The notes beneath the pieces were generated by a model. The model was given only the letters and a program-made list of their open reading frames with translations. It ran no database searches and was not told the origin of the DNA. DNA of 35,551 nt from the NCBI GenBank assembly GCA_036264815.1, contig DATAQH010000229.1, positions 1 through 35,551 on the forward strand. Direction: 5' to 3'. Source of the DNA: Candidatus Cybelea sp. (GTDB lineage: Bacteria > Vulcanimicrobiota > Vulcanimicrobiia > Vulcanimicrobiales > Vulcanimicrobiaceae). A program made the translations under genes and the position numbers. Positions 18,663 through 28,536 of the stretch are shown one piece after another. The first letter of the stretch is position 1. Each line of letters starts with the position of its first letter.

Positions 18663-19466
18663 ATGAAAACTCGATCAATTATTCTCAGCGCCGCCGCGTT
18701 GCTGCTGGCGGCCTCGCTTATGCCGGGTGCCATAGCGGCCGACCTCACCGACGTCGCGTACGTCGATCAGGCCGACGTCGCCAACCTGCCCGTCTTTTTG
18801 AGCGCAAATCGTCAGCTCGCCGGGTTCAAGGCTCAGATGGACGCGCAGTATAACTCGCAGATCGCCCACGCCAGATCCGATGCCGACAAGCAGCGGATAA
18901 CGATGCAGTTTCAGCAGCAGCTCAACGACAAGCAGCGCGAAGTCGTCGGGCCGCTTTTCCAGCGAGTGCAGCTGGCGATCGCGGCGGTTGCCGCGGCGCA
19001 CAACGTCTCGGTCGTCGTCGACAAGCGAATCGTGATTTACGGCGGCCAAGACGTCACCAAAGACGTCGAGACGATTTTCTCAAGCCCGCAGGCGGTCTCT
19101 CCGCCGGCGGCCTCCCCGCCGCCGTCGGAGATCGGTTTTGTCGACCAAAGCGCGCTCGACGGAATTCCGAAGGTGCAGGCGGCGAATCAGCAGATGTCGC
19201 AGTTCGAGAGTACGCAGCGACAGCTCTACGCCGCGAAGATGGACTTGGCGAAGGGCAACGGCGACAAGCAGCAAGTCCTCACGGCCTATAACAAGTCGAT
19301 ATCCGACAAGCAGGATCAGCTGCTCAAACCGCTGGTCGACGCGACAAAATCGGCAACCGCCGACGTCGCGCGCAAAAAGAACCTGCTGCTCGTCGTCGAT
19401 CGTGCCGATGTCGTTTATGGAGGCACGGACATCACCACGGATGTCCAGAATGAGCTCTCGAAATAG
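18663..19466 (+). CDS. Periplasmic chaperone, tandem (duplicated) OmpH/Skp-like protein
   Basis: ATG 18663 after GAAGGAAG, with signal peptide MKTRSIILSAAALLLAASLMPGAIA. Two OmpH-like modules are joined by a proline-rich linker (SPPAASPPPSE). Each module starts (V)A/GYVDQ... and ends ...VVVDKRIVIYGGQDVTKDV or ...LLVVDRADVVYGGTDITTDV. Confidence 0.8.
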   Translation: MKTRSIILSAAALLLAASLMPGAIAADLTDVAYVDQADVANLPVFLSANRQLAGFKAQMDAQYNSQIAHARSDADKQRITMQFQQQLNDKQREVVGPLFQRVQLAIAAVAAAHNVSVVVDKRIVIYGGQDVTKDVETIFSSPQAVSPPAASPPPSEIGFVDQSALDGIPKVQAANQQMSQFESTQRQLYAAKMDLAKGNGDKQQVLTAYNKSISDKQDQLLKPLVDATKSATADVARKKNLLLVVDRADVVYGGTDITTDVQNELSK

Positions 19467-20751
19467 TGCCGCGGCATTGCTTGGCATGCTAACGACGCTC
19501 GGAGCCGCCGCGGTTTTGCCGTCGGGCTGCGGTGTCAACGTTCACTCGGCCGCCATCCGCGGTACCGGCTACGTCCGCCTCGACGAAGCCGTCAAACGCC
19601 ACCCGCTCTATCCCCAGTTGTCGCAGGTCGACGACGCGATTGCGGCGATCACCCTTCAGTCTTCCGGCCCCCACGTACCGCTGACCGCGCGGCAGATCAC
19701 CGCGCAGACGGGGGAGCTCAATCGGGAGCTGCGGGCCGCGCAGGACCGCGCCAACAAAATCCTGGCGCAAAAGCAGCGCGACTACACGCGCCGCGAGCAG
19801 CAAGCCGTGGCGTCCGCGCTGGCTGCTGCGGGGGTCTCGGGGGCGGGCGCACTCGCCGCGCAGCAGATGAGCGGCGCATCGGCCGTCCAGGCGCAGCAGG
19901 CTGCCCAGAGCGCGAGCGCCGACCTTCAGGCCTATCAGCAGAACGTCATCTCGCAAGACAATGCGGCCACCAATTCGATCGCCAATCAGCTCGAGACGCA
20001 AGCCGCGCAGAAGTATCGCGCCAAGGCCGAACAGCTGCAGCAGAACGAGACCGATCTGTCGCTGCGTCTCACGCAACAGGATGCCGGCGCGCGCTTAGCG
20101 ATCAAGATGCGGCTCTCAAATCTCGCCATGGACCCGGAGGCTCGCAAACAGGCGCAGCAGCAGCTCGCGGCCATCAATGCGAAGGAGGAGGCGCAAGTCA
20201 ATACCCTGCGCGGCAGCGATGCGGCCGCGTTGCGCGCCTACAAGGCGCAGTTGGATCGCCAAACCTCCGACGCGATCCACTCGCAGGTCGGAACGATCAC
20301 CGCCCAAACCAAGGCGAAGCTCGAAGAGCACCGCAGCGAGCTCGGATCGCAGCTGCGCAGTCTGGCACCGGCTACGGCCTCTCCGAACCTTTCGCCGGGC
20401 GTGCGCGCGCAGATCGCCAAGATTGCGCGGCAGTACGCGACCCAGTTCCAAGCCGACGCCGGCAAGACGCTTGCCGAATATAACGCCACGAAAGCCGATC
20501 TCGACCGCCAGTTCGCGGCCATTCACGGGGCCGACGTCGGAGCGACCGGAGCGGCCGCCAAGGAACTCAACTCACTGCAGAAGCGCCGCACCGAACTGTA
20601 CGGGCAGATCGTCGGTCAGGTCGAGCGCGACGCGGCCCGCGTCGCGAAGGATCGCGGGCTCAGCATCGTTTTCGTTAACGTTTGGGCCGCCGCCGGCGGA
20701 TACGACATGACATCCCAAGTCATCAGCGACGTTGAAAGCCAACACGAGTGA
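19441..20751 (+). CDS. OmpH/Skp-like lipoprotein with a greatly extended Q/A-rich coiled coil (~435 aa)
   Basis: Real start probably ATG 19441 or 19450; the ORF-track start 19138 overlaps the previous gene out of frame. Signal peptide with lipobox-like VLPSGC. N-terminal GYVRLDEAV strand and C-terminal RGLSIVFVNVWAAAGGYDMTSQVISDV match the OmpH body. About 350 residues of heptad-like Q/A/K/E-rich sequence lie in between. Confidence 0.7.
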   Translation: MSRMSSRNSAAALLGMLTTLGAAAVLPSGCGVNVHSAAIRGTGYVRLDEAVKRHPLYPQLSQVDDAIAAITLQSSGPHVPLTARQITAQTGELNRELRAAQDRANKILAQKQRDYTRREQQAVASALAAAGVSGAGALAAQQMSGASAVQAQQAAQSASADLQAYQQNVISQDNAATNSIANQLETQAAQKYRAKAEQLQQNETDLSLRLTQQDAGARLAIKMRLSNLAMDPEARKQAQQQLAAINAKEEAQVNTLRGSDAAALRAYKAQLDRQTSDAIHSQVGTITAQTKAKLEEHRSELGSQLRSLAPATASPNLSPGVRAQIAKIARQYATQFQADAGKTLAEYNATKADLDRQFAAIHGADVGATGAAAKELNSLQKRRTELYGQIVGQVERDAARVAKDRGLSIVFVNVWAAAGGYDMTSQVISDVESQHE

Positions 20752-21162: not shown

Positions 21163-22185
21163 GTGCTCGGCACGCTGGAGGACCTTGCGCGGCGCGTCGG
21201 CGGCCGCGTCGTCGGCGACGGCGGCGTGCCGATCGAAACGATCGCGAGCATCGACGACGCCCGGCCGGGTGCGCTGACTTTTGCAACTTCCCCAGCGTAT
21301 CTCGCCGCGGCGTGTCGCAGCGCCGCGACGGCGGTTTTGATCGACGAGTCGCTGGCACAAACCCCCGCTCCAAAGCCGTTGCTCGTGGTCGAGAACGCGC
21401 GTCAGGCGTTAGCAGCGCTCCTCGAGAGTCTACGCGCACCGCGGCCGCGCGGCCCGTTCCGGCACCCGGCGGCATTCGTCGCGGCGGACGCTGCGCTCGC
21501 ACAAGACGTTTACGTCGAAGCCCACGCCTACGTCGGCAGCGGCGTCTCGATCGGAAAAGGGAGCGTCGTCGGCGCCGGCGCCTATATCGGAGACGGGAGC
21601 GTCCTAGGCGAGTCGGTTTGGATGAAGGCGAATGCGAGCCTGATGCCGGGCTGCGTCGTCGGCGATCGGGTCGTCCTGCATTCCGGCTGCGTCATCGGCA
21701 GCGACGGCTTCGGTTGGACGTTCGTAGATGGCCGCGCCGAACGAATTCCGCAGGTTGGCAACGTGGTGCTGGAAGAGGACGTCGAGATCGGGGCCAACAC
21801 CTGCGTCGACCGGGCTCAGACGGGCTCGACGGTCATCGGCGCCGGAACGAAGATCGACAACTTAGTTCAGATCGGGCACAACTGCCGGATCGGAAAGCAC
21901 TGTGTCATCGCGTCGTTGACCGGGCTGGCGGGCTCCACCGCGATCGGAGACTACGTCCGAGTCGGGGGACAAGTCGGATTCAAAGGGCACATCACGGTGG
22001 GCTCGGGCGTAACGATCGCGGGTCATACCGGCGTCTGGCACGACATCGAAGACGGCGCGACGATCTCGGGTCAGCCCGCGCAGAATCACCGCGACGAGCT
22101 GCGGCGACAGGTCATGATTCGCAAGCTGCCAAAGCTGTTCGATCGTGTCGACGCCCTGGAGCGCTCGTCCTCAAGAAAAAACTAA
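21163..22185 (+). CDS. lpxD: UDP-3-O-acylglucosamine N-acyltransferase
   Basis: 340-aa ORF. N-terminal LpxD-type domain (LEDLARRVGGRVVGDG...ASIDDARPGALTF) followed by hexapeptide left-handed beta-helix repeats and a C-terminal helix. Confidence 0.92.
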   Translation: MLGTLEDLARRVGGRVVGDGGVPIETIASIDDARPGALTFATSPAYLAAACRSAATAVLIDESLAQTPAPKPLLVVENARQALAALLESLRAPRPRGPFRHPAAFVAADAALAQDVYVEAHAYVGSGVSIGKGSVVGAGAYIGDGSVLGESVWMKANASLMPGCVVGDRVVLHSGCVIGSDGFGWTFVDGRAERIPQVGNVVLEEDVEIGANTCVDRAQTGSTVIGAGTKIDNLVQIGHNCRIGKHCVIASLTGLAGSTAIGDYVRVGGQVGFKGHITVGSGVTIAGHTGVWHDIEDGATISGQPAQNHRDELRRQVMIRKLPKLFDRVDALERSSSRKN

Positions 22186-22218: not shown

Positions 22219-23058
22219 ATGATGCAAGCGACGCTTCGCGAGAAGCTCTTCTTCGAGGGCGTCGGCCTTCACACCGGAGCGCCGTGTCGCGTCGAGCTGC
22301 GCCCGGCAGCGGCGGACGCGGGCCTGTACTTCGTCGCCGGCGGGGTCCAGATTCCCGCCACGGTCGAATACGTGGTCGACACGACCCGCGCGACCGTTAT
22401 CGGCCGCGACGGCGTGAGCATCTCGACGACCGAACATCTCCTCTCCGCGCTTTTCGCGATGGGAGTGGCAAACTGTGAAATCCTCGTCGAAGGACCCGAA
22501 ATACCGGTCTGCGACGGAAGCGCCTCGCACTTCGTTGCGGCGATCGACGGCTGCGGTTTAGAGACGCAATCTCAAGAACGCAGGCGGTTGGAACTCTCCG
22601 AACCGCTCTTCGTGCGCGACGGCGACAAGCTGATCGCCGCGCTCCCGTCGCCTTCTTGGCGAGTGCGATTCATCGCCGATTTCCCCGAACCGATCGGCAC
22701 CCAATACTTTAGCAGCGAGATCGACGAGAGCGGATACCGCGACGAGATCGCGGGCGCCCGTACCTTCGGATACTTGCACGAAGTGCAGGCGCTCTTGGAG
22801 CGAGGCTTGGCGCGCGGCGGAAGCCTGGACAACGCGCTGGTCTTTGGACCCGACGGCCCGATGCAGCCGCTGCGCTGGCCCAACGAGGCCGTCCGGCACA
22901 AGGTGCTCGATCTGATCGGCGACCTCGCGCTGCTCGGGGCGTGGCCGCAGTGCGAGATCGTTGCGGTTAAGAGCGGACACGGGCTGCACTGCACGATCAC
23001 CAACGTCCTACGTACGCAACTGCGCGTACTGTCTGCCGAGGAGAGCACGATTGGCTGA
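22219..23058 (+). CDS. lpxC: UDP-3-O-acyl-N-acetylglucosamine deacetylase
   Basis: 279-aa ORF. QATLREKLFFEGVGLHTGAPCRVELRPA, STTEHLLSAL, HKVLDLIGDLALLG, and GHGLH are LpxC hallmarks. Confidence 0.92.
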   Translation: MMQATLREKLFFEGVGLHTGAPCRVELRPAAADAGLYFVAGGVQIPATVEYVVDTTRATVIGRDGVSISTTEHLLSALFAMGVANCEILVEGPEIPVCDGSASHFVAAIDGCGLETQSQERRRLELSEPLFVRDGDKLIAALPSPSWRVRFIADFPEPIGTQYFSSEIDESGYRDEIAGARTFGYLHEVQALLERGLARGGSLDNALVFGPDGPMQPLRWPNEAVRHKVLDLIGDLALLGAWPQCEIVAVKSGHGLHCTITNVLRTQLRVLSAEESTIG

Positions 23059-23524
23059 ACTCGATATCCGTCAGATCTTCGAAATTTTACCGCATCGGTA
23101 CCCAATGCTTCTCGTGGATCGCATCCTCGAGTTCGAACACATGGTCCACGTGCGCGGCTATAAGAACATTACGTACAACGAACAGATATTCGCCGGGCAC
23201 TTTCCCGGCAATCCCGTGTTGCCGGGCGTGTACATGATCGAAGCGCTCGCGCAGCTCGGCGGCGCGATGATTCTCGAACCCGGCGAATTCTCTCGCAAAA
23301 CGCCGTATCTCGCCGGCATCGACAAAGCGAAGTTTCGGCGACCCGTCGTTCCCGGCGACCGATTGGATATGGAAGTGACGATGCTGCGCCACAAGCGCAA
23401 CATCGGCTGGGTCAATGCGGAAGCGACCGTCGACGGTCAGTTCGCGTGTTCGGCGGAGATCATGTTTTCGATCGTCTCCGACCCGCGAATGTTTGGCGTC
23501 GACTCCACCGTGCTGCACGTCTAG
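23051..23524 (+). CDS. fabZ: 3-hydroxyacyl-ACP dehydratase FabZ
   Basis: TTG start at 23051 overlapping the lpxC stop. DIRQIFEILPHRYPMLLVDRILEF, NEQIFAGHFPGNPVLPGVYMIEALAQ. About 157 aa, the usual FabZ size. Confidence 0.92.
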   Translation: MAELDIRQIFEILPHRYPMLLVDRILEFEHMVHVRGYKNITYNEQIFAGHFPGNPVLPGVYMIEALAQLGGAMILEPGEFSRKTPYLAGIDKAKFRRPVVPGDRLDMEVTMLRHKRNIGWVNAEATVDGQFACSAEIMFSIVSDPRMFGVDSTVLHV

Positions 23525-23538
23525 GGCGAGGCCTTCCC

Positions 23539-24306
23539 ATGCTGCATCCCAGCGCGATCGTTCATCCGAGCGCCGAGATTGGAAAGTACGCCGAGATTGG
23601 GCCGTTCTGCATCGTCGGCGAGCACGTCGTGATCGGAGCGCGGACGGTCTTGCAGGCGCACGTCGTCGTCAACGGCTGGACGAAGATCGGCGACGATTGT
23701 CAGCTGTATCCGTTTTCGACCGTCGGCGCTGCGTCGCAGGATCGCAAGTACGCCGGGGAGCGCGCCTACACTCGAATCGGCAGCCGCACCACGCTGCGCG
23801 AATACGTCAGCATTCAGCGTGCGACCGGGCAAGACCAGGTGACGGCAGTCGGCGACGATTGTCTCTTGCTGGCCTACGTTCACATCGCACATAATTGCGT
23901 TTTGGGCAACGGCGTAACGATGAGCAATCTCGCGCAGCTCGCCGGCCACGTGCAGGTCGCGGATTACGTTACGATCGGCGGACAGACCGGCATTCATCAG
24001 TTCACGCGGGTCGGACGCCACGCGATGGTCGGCGGGATGAGCAAGCTGACAAAAGACGTGCCGCCTTTCTTCCTCGTCGAAGGGAACCCGTGCCAGCCGT
24101 ACGGACTCAACAGCGTCGGGCTTCGCCGCGCGGCCTTCTCGGCCGAAGATCGTCAAGAGATCAAGCGCTTTTATAAGCTCCTATACGATCCGAAGCTCAA
24201 CGTTTCGCAAGCGACCGAGGCGATGAAGGCGGAGGTAATGACGGATCCGGGGCGCGAGATCATCGCGTTCCTCGAGGCGCCGTCGGAGCGCGGCGTCCTC
24301 AAATAG
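23539..24306 (+). CDS. lpxA: Acyl-ACP--UDP-N-acetylglucosamine O-acyltransferase
   Basis: ATG 23539. MLHPSAIVHPSAEIGKYAEIGPFCIVGEHV hexapeptide repeats, and GNPCQPYGLNSVGLRRAAFS...FYKLLY C-terminal helical domain. Ends at TAG 24304-24306. Confidence 0.92.
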   Translation: MLHPSAIVHPSAEIGKYAEIGPFCIVGEHVVIGARTVLQAHVVVNGWTKIGDDCQLYPFSTVGAASQDRKYAGERAYTRIGSRTTLREYVSIQRATGQDQVTAVGDDCLLLAYVHIAHNCVLGNGVTMSNLAQLAGHVQVADYVTIGGQTGIHQFTRVGRHAMVGGMSKLTKDVPPFFLVEGNPCQPYGLNSVGLRRAAFSAEDRQEIKRFYKLLYDPKLNVSQATEAMKAEVMTDPGREIIAFLEAPSERGVLK

Positions 24307-24318
24307 ATCGAGTTCTCG

Positions 24319-25428
24319 CTGAAATACTTCATCTCGACCGGGGAACCGTCCGGAGAGGCTAGCGGGATCGCGCTGGCAGAGGCGATTCGACGATACGATC
24401 CCGACGCGCGGTTCGAAGGAATCGGTGCGGCGCCGATGCGCGCGGCCGGCGTCACGTTGTGGCGCGACCATACCGGATGGGCGAGCATGGGCCCGGCGGC
24501 GGCGTTACCGCGCATTCCGAAATTGCTTCTGGCAATGCTGCAGACGGCCGCGCACATCGTCGCGTCGAAGCCCGCTCTGGTCGTGCTCGTAGACTTCGGC
24601 GTCTTCAATCTCCGGCTGGCCCGTCAGCTGCGCCGAATGAAGTATCCGGGTCCGATCCTCGATCTCTTTCCACCGGGAACCTGGCTGGATGACGAGGAGA
24701 AGGCGCGCCGCGTCAGCGCTGCCTGCGTTCCGGTGACGGTCTTCAAACATCAATACGATTTTTATCGCGGGCTCGGATGCCGCATCGAGTTCTTCGGACA
24801 TCCGCTTACCGGACGCTACGCGCTGCGCCCGCGCAAGGAGCCGCCGCCGCCCGACGGGGGAAAGGTAGCGATCCTCCCGGGCAGCCGCGGGGGCGAGCTG
24901 CGGCGGCACCTGCCGCTGCTGCTGGCGGCGTTTGCCAGGCTTGCGGCGCGGCGCCCCAACCTGGAGGGCGTGATCGGTGCCGCAAACGCACGCGCGCAGC
25001 AGCGCATCGCCGAGACGATCGCGCGCGCAGGTTTAAACAGGGTGAGGATGGCCCGCGGCGTAGCCGAGACCTTGGCCGGCGCGGACGGCGCTTGGGTTTG
25101 CTCGGGCACGGCCGTCCTCGAAACGGCGCTGCTCGGCGTTCCCGCCGTCGCGCTGTACGTGATTCCGCCGGCACTCATTTGGTACGGCAAGCGCATGATC
25201 AGGCATCGCTACATAACTTTGCCGAATCTCGTATTGGGGCGCGAAGTCGTTCCGGAGCTGCTCCAAGACGACGCAACGCCCGAGCGTCTCGCGCAGACGC
25301 TCGAAGGGCTCATGACCGACTCGGCTCGCCAGTACGCAGACTACGCGGAGATGCGCGAAGCGCTCGGTCCGAGCGATGCGCTGGAGCGCTGCGCGAAGTT
25401 CGCGGTCGCACTCGCGCGTGCCGGTTGA
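24319..25428 (+). CDS. lpxB: Lipid-A-disaccharide synthase (start codon non-canonical or unresolved)
   Basis: The ORF track starts at ATG 24436, but the same frame is open from 24307 and encodes the conserved LpxB N-terminus (L)KYFISTGEPSGEASGIALAEAIRRYDPDARFEGIGAAPM. Downstream matches include ILPGSRGGELRRHLP, SGTAVLETALLGVPAVALY and ITLPNLVLGREVVPELLQ. The only candidate starts are CTG 24319 or ATC 24307. Confidence 0.85.
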   Translation: MKYFISTGEPSGEASGIALAEAIRRYDPDARFEGIGAAPMRAAGVTLWRDHTGWASMGPAAALPRIPKLLLAMLQTAAHIVASKPALVVLVDFGVFNLRLARQLRRMKYPGPILDLFPPGTWLDDEEKARRVSAACVPVTVFKHQYDFYRGLGCRIEFFGHPLTGRYALRPRKEPPPPDGGKVAILPGSRGGELRRHLPLLLAAFARLAARRPNLEGVIGAANARAQQRIAETIARAGLNRVRMARGVAETLAGADGAWVCSGTAVLETALLGVPAVALYVIPPALIWYGKRMIRHRYITLPNLVLGREVVPELLQDDATPERLAQTLEGLMTDSARQYADYAEMREALGPSDALERCAKFAVALARAG

Positions 25429-25442
25429 GACGCAGCGCGGGC

Positions 25443-26186
25443 ATGCTACGCATCTATCATACGTCCGATCTGCACGACCATCGGGGATTCGTGCCTCGTC
25501 TGCGCGCGTTGCGCGCGCAGCGCCCCGGGCTTTTATTCGATTGCGGCGATTCGCTGCGCGGCAGCCAAACCGTCTACCATCGCACCGAGCCGGTCGTCGG
25601 CGAACTCCGCGAGGCCGGCTACGACGCCCAGAGCATCGGCAACCGCGAGTTCCATTATCTGTTTGCGCTCCTGCGCGCCCGCGCGCGGACGATGGGCTAT
25701 CCGCTGGTCTGCACGAACCTGCGCGACGTCAAGGGGCGCGAGCTGCCCTTTGCGCAGTCGCTGCGCTTCGCCGTACCCGACGGTACGGGCGGATCCTACA
25801 GCGTGCATGTTTTGGGCTTGCTGATCATGCAGTATCCCGTCGGCAGCCCCTGGGAGCGGCTCTTCGGCTGGCGCTTTCTGGATCCGTGGGACGCGATCGC
25901 GCCGTACGCCGCCGCGCTCGCCCCGCACGAGCCCTTGATCGTGCTCTCGCATCTGGGACTCTCGCTCGACGTCAAACTCGCACAACGCGTACCACGGATC
26001 GATCTGCTGCTGGGCGGCCATAGCCACGACACGCTCGCGCAGCCGCGATACGCCGGCGACGTGCCGATCGTTCACGCGGGACCGTACGGAAAGTTCGTTT
26101 CGCGCAGCGAGCTCGTCTACGCGCCGGGGCGGCGCCGGTTCGTGCTGCACGACTTCGCGCTGCTGCCGCTGCTGGAAGCATCGTGA
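25443..26186 (+). CDS. Calcineurin-like metallophosphoesterase (5'-nucleotidase-N-like), function unknown
   Basis: ATG 25443; the ORF-track start 24777 overlaps lpxB out of frame. Motifs are HTSDLHDH, CGDSLRG, GNREF (variant of GNH[DE]), LSHLG and GGHSHD. Starts 15 nt after the lpxB stop and overlaps the next gene (GTGA). Confidence 0.8.
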   Translation: MLRIYHTSDLHDHRGFVPRLRALRAQRPGLLFDCGDSLRGSQTVYHRTEPVVGELREAGYDAQSIGNREFHYLFALLRARARTMGYPLVCTNLRDVKGRELPFAQSLRFAVPDGTGGSYSVHVLGLLIMQYPVGSPWERLFGWRFLDPWDAIAPYAAALAPHEPLIVLSHLGLSLDVKLAQRVPRIDLLLGGHSHDTLAQPRYAGDVPIVHAGPYGKFVSRSELVYAPGRRRFVLHDFALLPLLEAS

Positions 26187-27346
26187 CGCGCGTGCTCTTC
26201 GTCTCGAACGGGCACGGCGAGGCCGCAATCGCCGACCGCATCGCCTTGGAGATTCGCGAGATGGAGCCCGGGTCGATCCGCGACCATCTCGCGCTCGTGG
26301 GCGTGAGCGCGGCGGAATCGGCGCGGGAGGTTGGCCCGCGCCGCGCGATGCCCAGCGGCGGTTTGATAGCGATGGGAAACGTCGGCAATCTGCTGCGGGA
26401 TTTACGCGCGGGGCTTTTGTCGCTCGTGGGAGCACAGCGACGCTTTCTGCGCTCGGTGCGAGGAGAGTACGACGCCGTGGTTGCCGTCGGTGACGTCTAT
26501 TGCTTGGCGATGGCGCGGCGCGCGCACGCGAAGACGATTTTCGTGGGCACGGCGAAAAGCGTGAGCGTGGCGCCCTACGGAAGGTTCGAGAGGCTCCTGC
26601 TTTCTCGCGCGCAGGCGTGTTTCGTGCGCGACGACGCGACGGTACGTTCGCTGCGCGAGGACGGAGTGAGCGTCGAGCCTTCTGCAAACGTGATCGTCGA
26701 TCTCTTCGAGAACTCAGGCGATGACGACGCGGCTCGCGCGCACCGCGGTTTCGATCCCGCGCTCGCGCTCTTCCCCGGAAGCCGCCCCAGCGCGTACGGC
26801 GATGCCGCCTTCTTATTGCAGGTCGTTGCGGAGATCGCCGCCGCGCATCCGACTGCCGGCGCCGTTCTCTCGATCGCGCCGGGGCTCGATCCGGTTCGCT
26901 TCGCGACCGAAGCGCGGCGTGCCGGCTGGGAGGTAAGCGACGGAGTCGCTGCGCGGATTCCGTTCGTGCTGTGCGCGCAGGGACGAGCAGTCGTGCGGGC
27001 GTGGAACGGGCCGCTCGGTGCGGTGCTCGCACGCGCGGACCTCGTTCTCGGACAAGCGGGAACCGCAAACGAAGGTGCGGCGGCAGCGGGCGTTCCGGTC
27101 GTCGCTTTCGATCGCGAGCGCGACACGGGGTCGCGCTGGTATCGGCAACGGCAGCAGGGCCTGCTCGACGGCGCACTCACCGTTCTTCCCGGCGACCTTC
27201 CCACGGCGGTTCGCGGCGTCGTCGAGCTTTTGAACGATCCCGATCGGCGCAGGCGGATGGCGGAGATCGGGCGCGCGCGCATGGGGAGTCCGGGCGGGGC
27301 GCGGCGCATTGCGGTATGCGTGCTGGCGCTCGCGCGCGGCGGCTGA
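26183..27346 (+). CDS. LpxB-related GT-B glycosyltransferase (lipid-A-disaccharide synthase-related family, from memory TIGR03492-like)
   Basis: 387-aa ORF. N-terminal VLFVSNGHGEAAIADRIALEI and C-terminal ADLVLGQAGTANEGAAAAGVPVVAF mirror the LpxB N- and C-lobe motifs, but the protein is clearly distinct from the bona fide lpxB upstream. Confidence 0.7.
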   Translation: MTRVLFVSNGHGEAAIADRIALEIREMEPGSIRDHLALVGVSAAESAREVGPRRAMPSGGLIAMGNVGNLLRDLRAGLLSLVGAQRRFLRSVRGEYDAVVAVGDVYCLAMARRAHAKTIFVGTAKSVSVAPYGRFERLLLSRAQACFVRDDATVRSLREDGVSVEPSANVIVDLFENSGDDDAARAHRGFDPALALFPGSRPSAYGDAAFLLQVVAEIAAAHPTAGAVLSIAPGLDPVRFATEARRAGWEVSDGVAARIPFVLCAQGRAVVRAWNGPLGAVLARADLVLGQAGTANEGAAAAGVPVVAFDRERDTGSRWYRQRQQGLLDGALTVLPGDLPTAVRGVVELLNDPDRRRRMAEIGRARMGSPGGARRIAVCVLALARGG

Positions 27347-28536
27347 TGCGGCGCTTCGTCCCCCCCGGCCTCGCGCTGATCTACTCGGCGCTCCCACTTT
27401 TTCCGAGCTTCATCGCGCTGACCGGCGTGGCGTTTCCAGGCGTCTCGCTGCTGCCGATTCCGGCGACGCTCGCGGTGCTCGGCGGCTGCTGCGTTCTTGC
27501 CGTTTACGCGCTGGTCATACTCGCACGATATCCGCTGCCCGGCTCGCAGCCGCTGTTTTTGCCGTTGCTCTCGATCTTCGCTGCGGGACTGCTCGCCGGA
27601 TGCTTGGGCTTCGATCCGCGCTCGGGTCTGCTCTTCACCTTCATCGGCGGCCTCGGTATCGTCTGGCACTGCTCGATCATGCGCTTCTACGACGATCGCT
27701 ACGCGGCTGCAGCGCTCTTCTTTGCCTATCTTCTCTCGGGAGGCATCGCGGCCGCGGTTGCAATCGTGACGGTCGTGCTGCGCGTACCGGCGGCGCTCTA
27801 CGCGCTGCAGCACGGGCGTGCGACCGGAACGTTCATCCTGCCCGGCGAGCTCGCGGGGTATCTGATCGTGCTGCTGCCGGTCGCCTTTGCCGTCGGGCGC
27901 GTCGCGAGTCTGCCGGCAATGCGAGCCCTCGCATGGAGCGTCTTCGGCGTCGGGCTCGTCGCTCTGGTGCTGACGTTTTCGCGCGCCGGATGGATGGGCG
28001 CGGCAGCCGCGGCGGCCTTCCTGGTCGCGGTGCGTACCCGTCGCCCCGCGGTTGCGGCAGCGGTCGCGGGCGCCGGCCTTTTGGCGATCGTGCTGCTCTT
28101 TAACGCGCATCACGATCCGAGCGAAGATTACACGCGCCTCTCGATCTGGCAGGCAGCCATCGAGATCATCAACCGCTTCCCCCTGCTGGGCGTCGGGCCG
28201 TTCAACTTCTCGCATCTCTACGCGCTCGTCCGCGCACCCGACGGGGACGCGACGGCATTCCACGCTCACAGCCTCTATCTCACGTTTTTCGCCGAGTTCG
28301 GACTCGTGGGAGTCGCCGCGGTCGCGTGGACGATGTGGCGATTCGCGCAAGAACTGCAGCGGCGGCTCGCCACCGCCACGCCGTCGGCGGCGCTGCTCTC
28401 CTGCAGCATCGCCGCCGGGCTGGTCGGGGTGGGAGTTCAAGGCCTGATCGACACGGTGAGCGTGGTAATCTTTGGATTATGGATGCCCACGTTGGCCCTT
28501 GCGCTTGCCACGGCAGCCTCTCGCGAGGTTCCCTAG
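27346..28536 (+). CDS. O-antigen ligase/polymerase-like polytopic membrane protein (Wzy_C family)
   Basis: ATG 27346 (TGATG overlap). About 10 predicted TM helices. RATGTFILPGELAGYL, TFSRAGWMG and FHAHSLYLTFFAEFGLVG resemble the WaaL/Wzy_C periplasmic-loop signature. Confidence 0.8.
   Translation: MRRFVPPGLALIYSALPLFPSFIALTGVAFPGVSLLPIPATLAVLGGCCVLAVYALVILARYPLPGSQPLFLPLLSIFAAGLLAGCLGFDPRSGLLFTFIGGLGIVWHCSIMRFYDDRYAAAALFFAYLLSGGIAAAVAIVTVVLRVPAALYALQHGRATGTFILPGELAGYLIVLLPVAFAVGRVASLPAMRALAWSVFGVGLVALVLTFSRAGWMGAAAAAAFLVAVRTRRPAVAAAVAGAGLLAIVLLFNAHHDPSEDYTRLSIWQAAIEIINRFPLLGVGPFNFSHLYALVRAPDGDATAFHAHSLYLTFFAEFGLVGVAAVAWTMWRFAQELQRRLATATPSAALLSCSIAAGLVGVGVQGLIDTVSVVIFGLWMPTLALALATAASREVP

Follow-up and report, generated by a model that had tools for sequence, protein, structure and literature searches.

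Which enzyme forms lipid X in a bacterium whose lipid A genes stand together but include none of the known genes for that step? The question is raised by a contig of Candidatus Cybelea sp. (DATAQH010000229.1, assembly GCA_036264815.1), analysed here over its whole 35,551 nt (the window), which encodes LpxD, LpxC, LpxA and LpxB, as an earlier note on this DNA had stated, and FabZ as well. To our knowledge, the lipid X step is the sole early step of lipid A synthesis to have been invented several times, as LpxH, LpxI and LpxG. The note had reported nothing resembling these three in the cluster, and this held: Pfam scans of all major open reading frames (ORFs) found no such gene in the window, and a phmmer search with E. 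coli LpxH gave zero matches among its 388 six-frame ORFs, the absence being established for the window and for related clusters of ~20 kb only. The sole metallophosphoesterase signature in the window belongs to a gene between lpxB and a TIGR03492 gene. We consider its product, hereafter MPE (metallophosphoesterase), a candidate non-orthologous UDP-2,3-diacylglucosamine hydrolase, with a probability of roughly 55%, and very probably a dedicated enzyme of lipid A or lipopolysaccharide (LPS) biosynthesis.

Re-reading the sequence confirmed the ORF, its strand, its length and the motifs given in the earlier note:

25443 to 26186, forward strand: MPE, 247 aa, short GNRE family, corresponding to the UshA/5'-nucleotidase N-domain only

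The gene runs from an ATG at 25443 to a TGA at 26184-26186. It begins 14 nt past the lpxB stop, where 15 had been claimed, and the claimed overlap with the next gene stands, the TGA being shared over 4 nt (GTGA) with the GTG at 26183 that opens the TIGR03492 gene. The frame is open upstream as far as 24777, but in 64 of 72 family representatives the protein begins at the aligned Met, which supports 25443 as the start. Five motifs, SDLHD (residues 8-12), GDSLRG (35-40), GNREF (66-70), LSHLG (168-172) and GGHSH (191-195), match the pattern DxH, GD, GN[H/x][D/E], H and GHxH that defines the calcineurin-like superfamily. Motif III, GNREF, occupies nt 25638-25652 on the forward strand, with Arg68 encoded by CGC at 25644-25646.

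The proposed layout resembling the N-domain of 5'-nucleotidases was borne out by both sequence and fold. The Pfam Metallophos profile (PF00149), one of the checks suggested in the earlier note, matches the MPE barely above its cut-off (23.3 versus 21.5 bits), and the best NCBIfam matches, all sub-threshold, are SoxB, UshA-like and 2',3'-cyclic-nucleotide phosphodiesterase/5'-nucleotidase models. Sequence searches of the PDB returned 5'-nucleotidases with E values down to 2e-11. An AlphaFold2 model built on a 70-sequence alignment reached pLDDT 97.1 and pTM 0.94, and Foldseek placed the N-domains of B. subtilis YunD, E. coli UshA and human CD73 on top among PDB structures (query-normalised TM 0.72-0.80, 18-24% identity; target-normalised TMt ~0.38, the targets being 460-530 aa long), with no LpxH among the top 50 matches. 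Given this model confidence and the 1777 homologues found at E<=1e-5, the MPE is not a chance ORF. It lacks a signal peptide, as residue 8 already belongs to motif I and the N-terminus is not hydrophobic, and also lacks a transmembrane segment (maximum 19-residue hydropathy 1.15; isoelectric point 9.35); it is predicted to be cytoplasmic, soluble or peripheral.

Membership of LpxH itself was rejected. The LpxH models TIGR01854 and NF003743, searched as the earlier note had proposed, were silent on the MPE at E<=10 while scoring 389 and 364 bits for the E. coli LpxH control, and hhalign aligned the GHxH motif only, with a probability of 0.7%.

The MPE belongs instead to a short family of its own. 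A full HMMER scan over 1.84 billion cluster representatives yielded ~70 stand-alone proteins of about 225-280 aa with 26-50% identity to the MPE, besides many two-domain 5'-nucleotidases. Motif III reads GNREF in all 120 close MPE homologues and GNRE in all 72 distant short homologues, whereas the two-domain relatives (at least 36) all carry GNHE(F/Y)D. Across 72 representatives clustered at 50% identity, the metal ligands D9, H11, D36, N67, H170, H193 and H195 are invariant, as are R68 and E69, and the C-terminal domain is absent from every short member. A neighbour-joining tree of N-domains held one split that unites all 76 Arg-type sequences with only one short His-type sequence; the short GNRE proteins, 235-275 aa in length, are a coherent clade, and the loss of the C-terminal domain and the His-to-Arg change therefore apparently occurred once.

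No NCBIfam model covers this family, whose members carry the automatic names 5'-nucleotidase, 2',3'-cyclic-nucleotide phosphodiesterase or metallophosphoesterase. Literature searches returned no description of it or of a fourth UDP-diacylglucosamine hydrolase, and reviews up to 2026 name just LpxH, LpxI and LpxG for the lipid X step. Those members that are named belong to LPS-bearing Eremiobacterota/Vulcanimicrobiota, to Armatimonadota and, in one case, to a "Chloroflexota" metagenome-assembled genome (MAG) with lpx genes. A contig scan with the family pattern gave 80 loci, mostly canonical GNHE 5'-nucleotidases caught by the GGHSH pattern, with 16 true GNRE loci among them (14 Armatimonadota, 2 Eremiobacterota), an incomplete taxonomic census. 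Three proteins that share over 70% identity with the MPE (P0036, P0105 and P0118) bear the NCBI MAG labels Nitrosotalea (an archaeon), Acidoferrales and Verrucomicrobiae, and almost certainly derive from mis-binned Eremiobacterota contigs.

What does the arginine mean? The earlier note had recognised the replacement of His by Arg in GNREF, which is correct, and had taken it as a sign of altered chemistry or substrate handling. It is no unexplained oddity: among metallophosphoesterases, this substitution in motif III is reported for LpxH only (Opiyo et al., PMC3087551; Okada et al., PMC5016852), and we checked that GNRD is present in E. coli LpxH. In the LpxH structure, Arg80 and the 1-phosphate of lipid X, i.e. 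the β-phosphate of the substrate, are joined by a bidentate salt bridge. Arg68 so appears to be the LpxH signature, gained independently on a UshA-like scaffold, and as a hallmark of LpxH the GNR motif argues for UDP-2,3-diacylglucosamine hydrolase activity.

The second line of evidence is the position of the gene, for which the immediate neighbours are needed:

21163 to 22185, forward strand: lpxD
22219 to 23058, forward strand: lpxC
22961 to 23524, forward strand: fabZ
23446 to 24306, forward strand: lpxA, with homology from Met 23539
24319 to 25428, forward strand: lpxB, lipid-A-disaccharide synthase; frame opens at 24307, stop TGA at 25426-25428
26183 to 27346, forward strand: TIGR03492, "lipid-A-disaccharide synthase-related" GT-B protein, sharing GTGA with the MPE gene
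27340 to 28536, forward strand: Wzy_C/O-antigen-ligase-like membrane protein, with which the envelope cluster goes on
after the Wzy_C gene and up to 30953: LptC, LptB and LptF/G

This arrangement recurs in an lpx-linked subfamily of 13 loci (the window, L001, L072, L084, L002/3, L004 and L085-L091; L001, L072 and L084 are Eremiobacterota), whose MPEs are about 30-93% identical to that of the window, with values of about 30-44% among them. Some of these loci are GC-rich and others clearly GC-poor, and their labels include Eremiobacterota/Vulcanimicrobiota, one "Chloroflexota" MAG and one "Armatimonadota" MAG. The MPE gene lies 0-3 genes 3' of lpxB in every one of the 13. The general order is (OmpH x3)-lpxD-(~590 aa gene)-lpxC-fabZ-(gnnB)-gnnA-lpxA-lpxB-(second LpxB-like)-(LmtA-like methyltransferase)-(small ORF)-MPE-TIGR03492, and in none of these clusters does an LpxI-like gene or a Pfam LpxI match occur between lpxA and lpxB. 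The lpx-linked members lack a signal peptide, keep GNRE invariant and have TIGR03492 next to them, all of which is true of the window MPE.

The earlier note had described the MPE as coupled to lpxB. Placement in the lpx cluster stands; the tightest partner, however, is TIGR03492, which is directly 3' of the MPE gene in 12 of 12 unfused loci, overlaps it by 4 nt in five, and is fused to it in the remaining one. That fusion (L091, 8001-9953), on a low-GC contig of clean assembly, is an in-frame protein of 650 aa in which the MPE C-terminus is followed by a ~14-residue linker and then by the TIGR03492 N-terminal sequence "LFISNGHGED". Apparent LpxB-MPE fusions (P0126, P0231 and fragments) were discarded as indel artefacts of long-read assemblies with many split genes. 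Such apparent fusions, together with split lpxB, lpxC and lptB genes, occur in ENA long-read assemblies (L092, 8001-10010; L093, 6966-8783; L001, 8870-10001), look like the product of indels and advise caution when gene fusions are mined from such data.

Could this conserved order be no more than inherited neighbourhood around a housekeeping cytosolic nucleotide phosphoesterase, such as a nucleotidase or a cyclic-nucleotide or dinucleotide phosphodiesterase? The automatic annotations point that way, and so does an Armatimonadota GNRE subfamily (L005-L016, L018 and L073; motif II GDAxxxGN; Chthonomonadales and Fimbriimonadales) that lies outside lpx clusters: Fimbriimonadales members are 3' of secG, Chthonomonadales members are 5' of two PMT/PMT_2 GT-C membrane glycosyltransferases, and only L014 is near lpx genes, with lpxD/lpxC ~1.3 kb upstream. 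The expected linkage of orthologues to lpx genes in other genomes is thus seen at all 13 loci of the lpx-linked subfamily and fails in this one. However, all 13 loci, with identities as low as ~30% and very different GC contents, keep the order lpxB...MPE-TIGR03492, which includes translational coupling and a fusion, and the family has neither the C-terminal nucleotide-binding domain nor the catalytic His of 5'-nucleotidases. We therefore regard a housekeeping role as improbable. At L014, an AsmA/YhdP-like gene of ~1490 aa lies opposite.

The sister clusters also bear on the structure of the lipid A that is made. Several encode a membrane methyltransferase (PEMT-like) that most closely resembles LmtA of Leptospira, the enzyme that O-methylates the lipid A 1-phosphate (L090, 8959-9534; L088, 8106-10019; also L002, L004, L086 and L091), fused in L088 to the second LpxB-like paralogue. 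An LmtA-like neighbour implies a lipid A that keeps its 1-phosphate, and hence a lipid X-forming step; it suggests that the lipid A of sister lineages retains a 1-phosphate derived from lipid X. Together with gnnA/gnnB, these genes would imply a GlcN3N-containing, methyl-phosphorylated lipid A in those lineages. Two further genes of the sister clusters have no assigned family: one of ~560-600 aa between lpxD and lpxC, without a Pfam or NCBIfam match and not present in the window (L086, 581-2266; L087, 2207-4021; L089, 3440-5203; L090, 1499-3292), and a small ORF of 110-170 aa directly 5' of the MPE gene.

The same neighbour speaks to another explanation, in which the MPE trims lipid A at the cytoplasmic face, removing the 1-phosphate or 1-diphosphate to leave a phosphate-poor, cyanobacteria-like lipid A. 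Its 5'-nucleotidase relatives are phosphomonoesterases, cyanobacterial LPS reportedly lacks phosphate and is made by genomes with lpxA/C/D/B only (PMC3087551), and the polar lipids of Vulcanimicrobium alpinus are mostly unidentified glycolipids and lipids (PMC9758169). Yet the catalytic His-Asp dyad is lost, which argues against ordinary monoesterase chemistry, and the LmtA-like gene of sister clusters implies a retained 1-phosphate. Moreover, lipid A phosphatases are generally known as periplasmic PAP2 enzymes. Loss of the dyad, the LmtA-like neighbour and the MPE-TIGR03492 fusion make both trimming and housekeeping less likely, and we hold trimming to be quite improbable.

Several observations weigh against assigning UDP-2,3-diacylglucosamine hydrolase activity to the MPE and must be set beside the arginine and the synteny. 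The tightest coupling of the MPE is to TIGR03492, whose profile matches UDP-GlcNAc 2-epimerases in the PDB at 3e-8 and LpxB (5w8s) at 4.5e-4, indicating a UDP-sugar-binding GT-B enzyme that is only remotely LpxB-like; the true substrate could be another UDP-linked intermediate. The MPE model has no obvious LpxH-like helical lipid-binding cap, judged from secondary structure only, in which only short helices (136-141 and 148-158) lie between core strands. The Armatimonadota subfamily is found outside lpx clusters, and the synteny is largely confined to one broad phylum-level group, so that it may partly reflect inheritance rather than selection. Furthermore, lpxH is generally not linked to the lpx cluster.

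The first of these points defines a rival in its own right: the MPE would be a lipid A or LPS enzyme that works with TIGR03492 on a different UDP-linked intermediate, for example converting a UDP-(acyl-)sugar to a sugar-1-phosphate for TIGR03492 or clearing UDP- or UMP-linked by-products, while a canonical or still unknown enzyme makes lipid X. Adjacency, 4-nt overlaps and fusion all involve TIGR03492 and not lpxB, from which up to three genes separate the MPE gene in sister clusters, and UshA-type enzymes are generally known to take many UDP-sugars. Against this, the Arg-for-His replacement is so far known solely from the UDP-diacylglucosamine hydrolase LpxH, and the MPE is the only candidate for the lipid X step that the clusters hold, even though an LmtA-like gene there points to a 1-phosphate. 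We judge this rival rather unlikely, though it deserves more weight than trimming or a housekeeping role.

We therefore retain UDP-2,3-diacylglucosamine hydrolysis as the preferred role. The suggestion of the earlier note that the MPE was recruited independently for this step is strengthened, though not proven, by its placement in the cluster, its kinship with the bifunctional UDP-sugar hydrolase/5'-nucleotidase UshA, its predicted cytoplasmic location and its intact set of metal ligands. In the mechanism that we propose, the MPE would be a binuclear-metal pyrophosphatase acting on UDP-2,3-diacylglucosamine, or on its GlcN3N analogue in sister lineages, to give UMP and lipid X. Asp9, His11, Asp36, Asn67, His170, His193 and His195 would bind two metal ions that activate a water molecule for attack on the α-phosphate, as in UshA and LpxH, and Arg68, at the site of the catalytic His of 5'-nucleotidases, would hold the β-phosphate (the 1-phosphate of lipid X) much as Arg80 does in LpxH. 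Lipid X would then pass as acceptor to LpxB, to the co-translated TIGR03492 paralogue, or to both, for a GT19-type condensation. The family would have arisen once, from a UshA/5'-nucleotidase-like ancestor that lost its signal peptide and C-terminal domain and had its His-Asp dyad replaced. A more far-reaching version, which we offer as tentative, is that the MPE and TIGR03492 might constitute a two-enzyme module, at times one polypeptide, of a distinct terrabacterial early Raetz pathway, in which an LpxH-type arginine evolved convergently and a dedicated LpxB-like transferase takes lipid X directly; such a module, if real, could explain lipid A in diderm phyla that lack LpxH, LpxI and LpxG.

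The pathway itself is real in this phylum, given that cultured V. alpinus is Gram-negative, rich in 3-hydroxy fatty acids and enclosed by an outer membrane covered with LPS (PMC9758169) and that WPS-2 genomes are reported to carry LPS synthesis genes (PMC6664022). Several diderm phyla are without a recognised enzyme for the lipid X step (Opiyo 2010, PMC3087551). If the assignment is correct, the MPE would be a fourth lipid X-forming solution, drawn from a different metallophosphoesterase branch, and would exemplify convergent active-site evolution through the same His-to-Arg substitution as in LpxH. It would also supply a missing pathway step in Eremiobacterota and Armatimonadota, place TIGR03492 in a functional setting and sharpen the prediction, from genomes, of LPS production in uncultured lineages. 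The hypothesis lends itself to direct testing, since there are representatives in culture and lpxH complementation is available in E. coli.

The wider window (GC ~65%), whose proteins have their nearest relatives in Candidatus Cybelea/Baltobacteraceae (Eremiobacterota), shows the setting of these genes:

origin region, in order: dnaA, dnaN, recF, dciA-like, gyrB
envelope cluster, 5' part: TamB, BamA, three Skp/OmpH-like genes, lpxD, lpxC, fabZ, lpxA, lpxB, MPE
envelope cluster, 3' part: TIGR03492, Wzy_C ligase-like, LptC, LptB, LptF/G, DUF3084, GT4 glycosyltransferase

The outer-membrane biogenesis supercluster spans 4254-30953, begins less than 300 nt 3' of the dnaA-dnaN-recF-DciA-gyrB origin block, and has its gene order conserved on the 2.98-Mb contig L001. 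The middle Skp-like ORF (19138-20751), listed with 537 aa, is of unusual length; its OmpH match covers the last ~110 residues only, and the remainder is rich in Gln and Ala and probably coiled. The lpxB frame opens at the codon directly after the lpxA TAG (24304-24330 region) and has no ATG, GTG or TTG before residue 44. The CTG at 24319 is aligned with the Met or Val start of lpxB orthologues (M/V-R-Y-F-x-S-T-G-E), and is the likely start codon as judged from this alignment. The spacer between lpxA and lpxB is 12 nt here versus ~140-250 nt in L001, L072 and L084; with the lack of a usual start codon, this points to a CTG start or to a recent deletion of the start region.

How does the MPE compare with the enzymes known for this chemistry? 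LpxI (DUF1009) is an alternative lipid X-forming enzyme whose gene typically adjoins lpxB, a genomic logic similar to that of the MPE gene; however, it has an unrelated fold, is not a metallophosphoesterase and attacks the β-phosphate. The MPE is not LpxI, since no Pfam LpxI match was found for it or for any ORF of the window, where lpxA and lpxB are only 12 nt apart. LpxG (Chlamydia Ct461) is an independent calcineurin-like recruit for the LpxH step and provides a precedent for non-orthologous replacement, but is described as having a transmembrane helix at its N-terminus and the canonical motif GNHD (PMC4807358), neither of which the MPE has; the two were set apart on this description. LpxH shares with the MPE the calcineurin-like superfamily, a length of ~240 aa, a cytoplasmic or peripheral location and the Arg for His in motif III (GNRD versus GNRE), and would share the reaction and the role of the arginine as proposed here, whereas its gene is usually not beside lpxB. 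The UshA/5'-nucleotidase family (CD73, YunD and the SoxB N-domain) is the closest by sequence and fold and has the same five-motif layout (DxH, GD, GNxE, H and GGHxH). Unlike these proteins, the MPE lacks a signal peptide and the entire C-terminal substrate-binding domain, has GNREFH in place of the catalytic His-Asp dyad of GNHEFD, and is encoded in a lipid A cluster, the role of the UshA family being periplasmic nucleotide scavenging. UshA (EC 3.6.1.45) nevertheless converts UDP-sugars to UMP and sugar-1-phosphate, the same bond chemistry as that proposed for the MPE.

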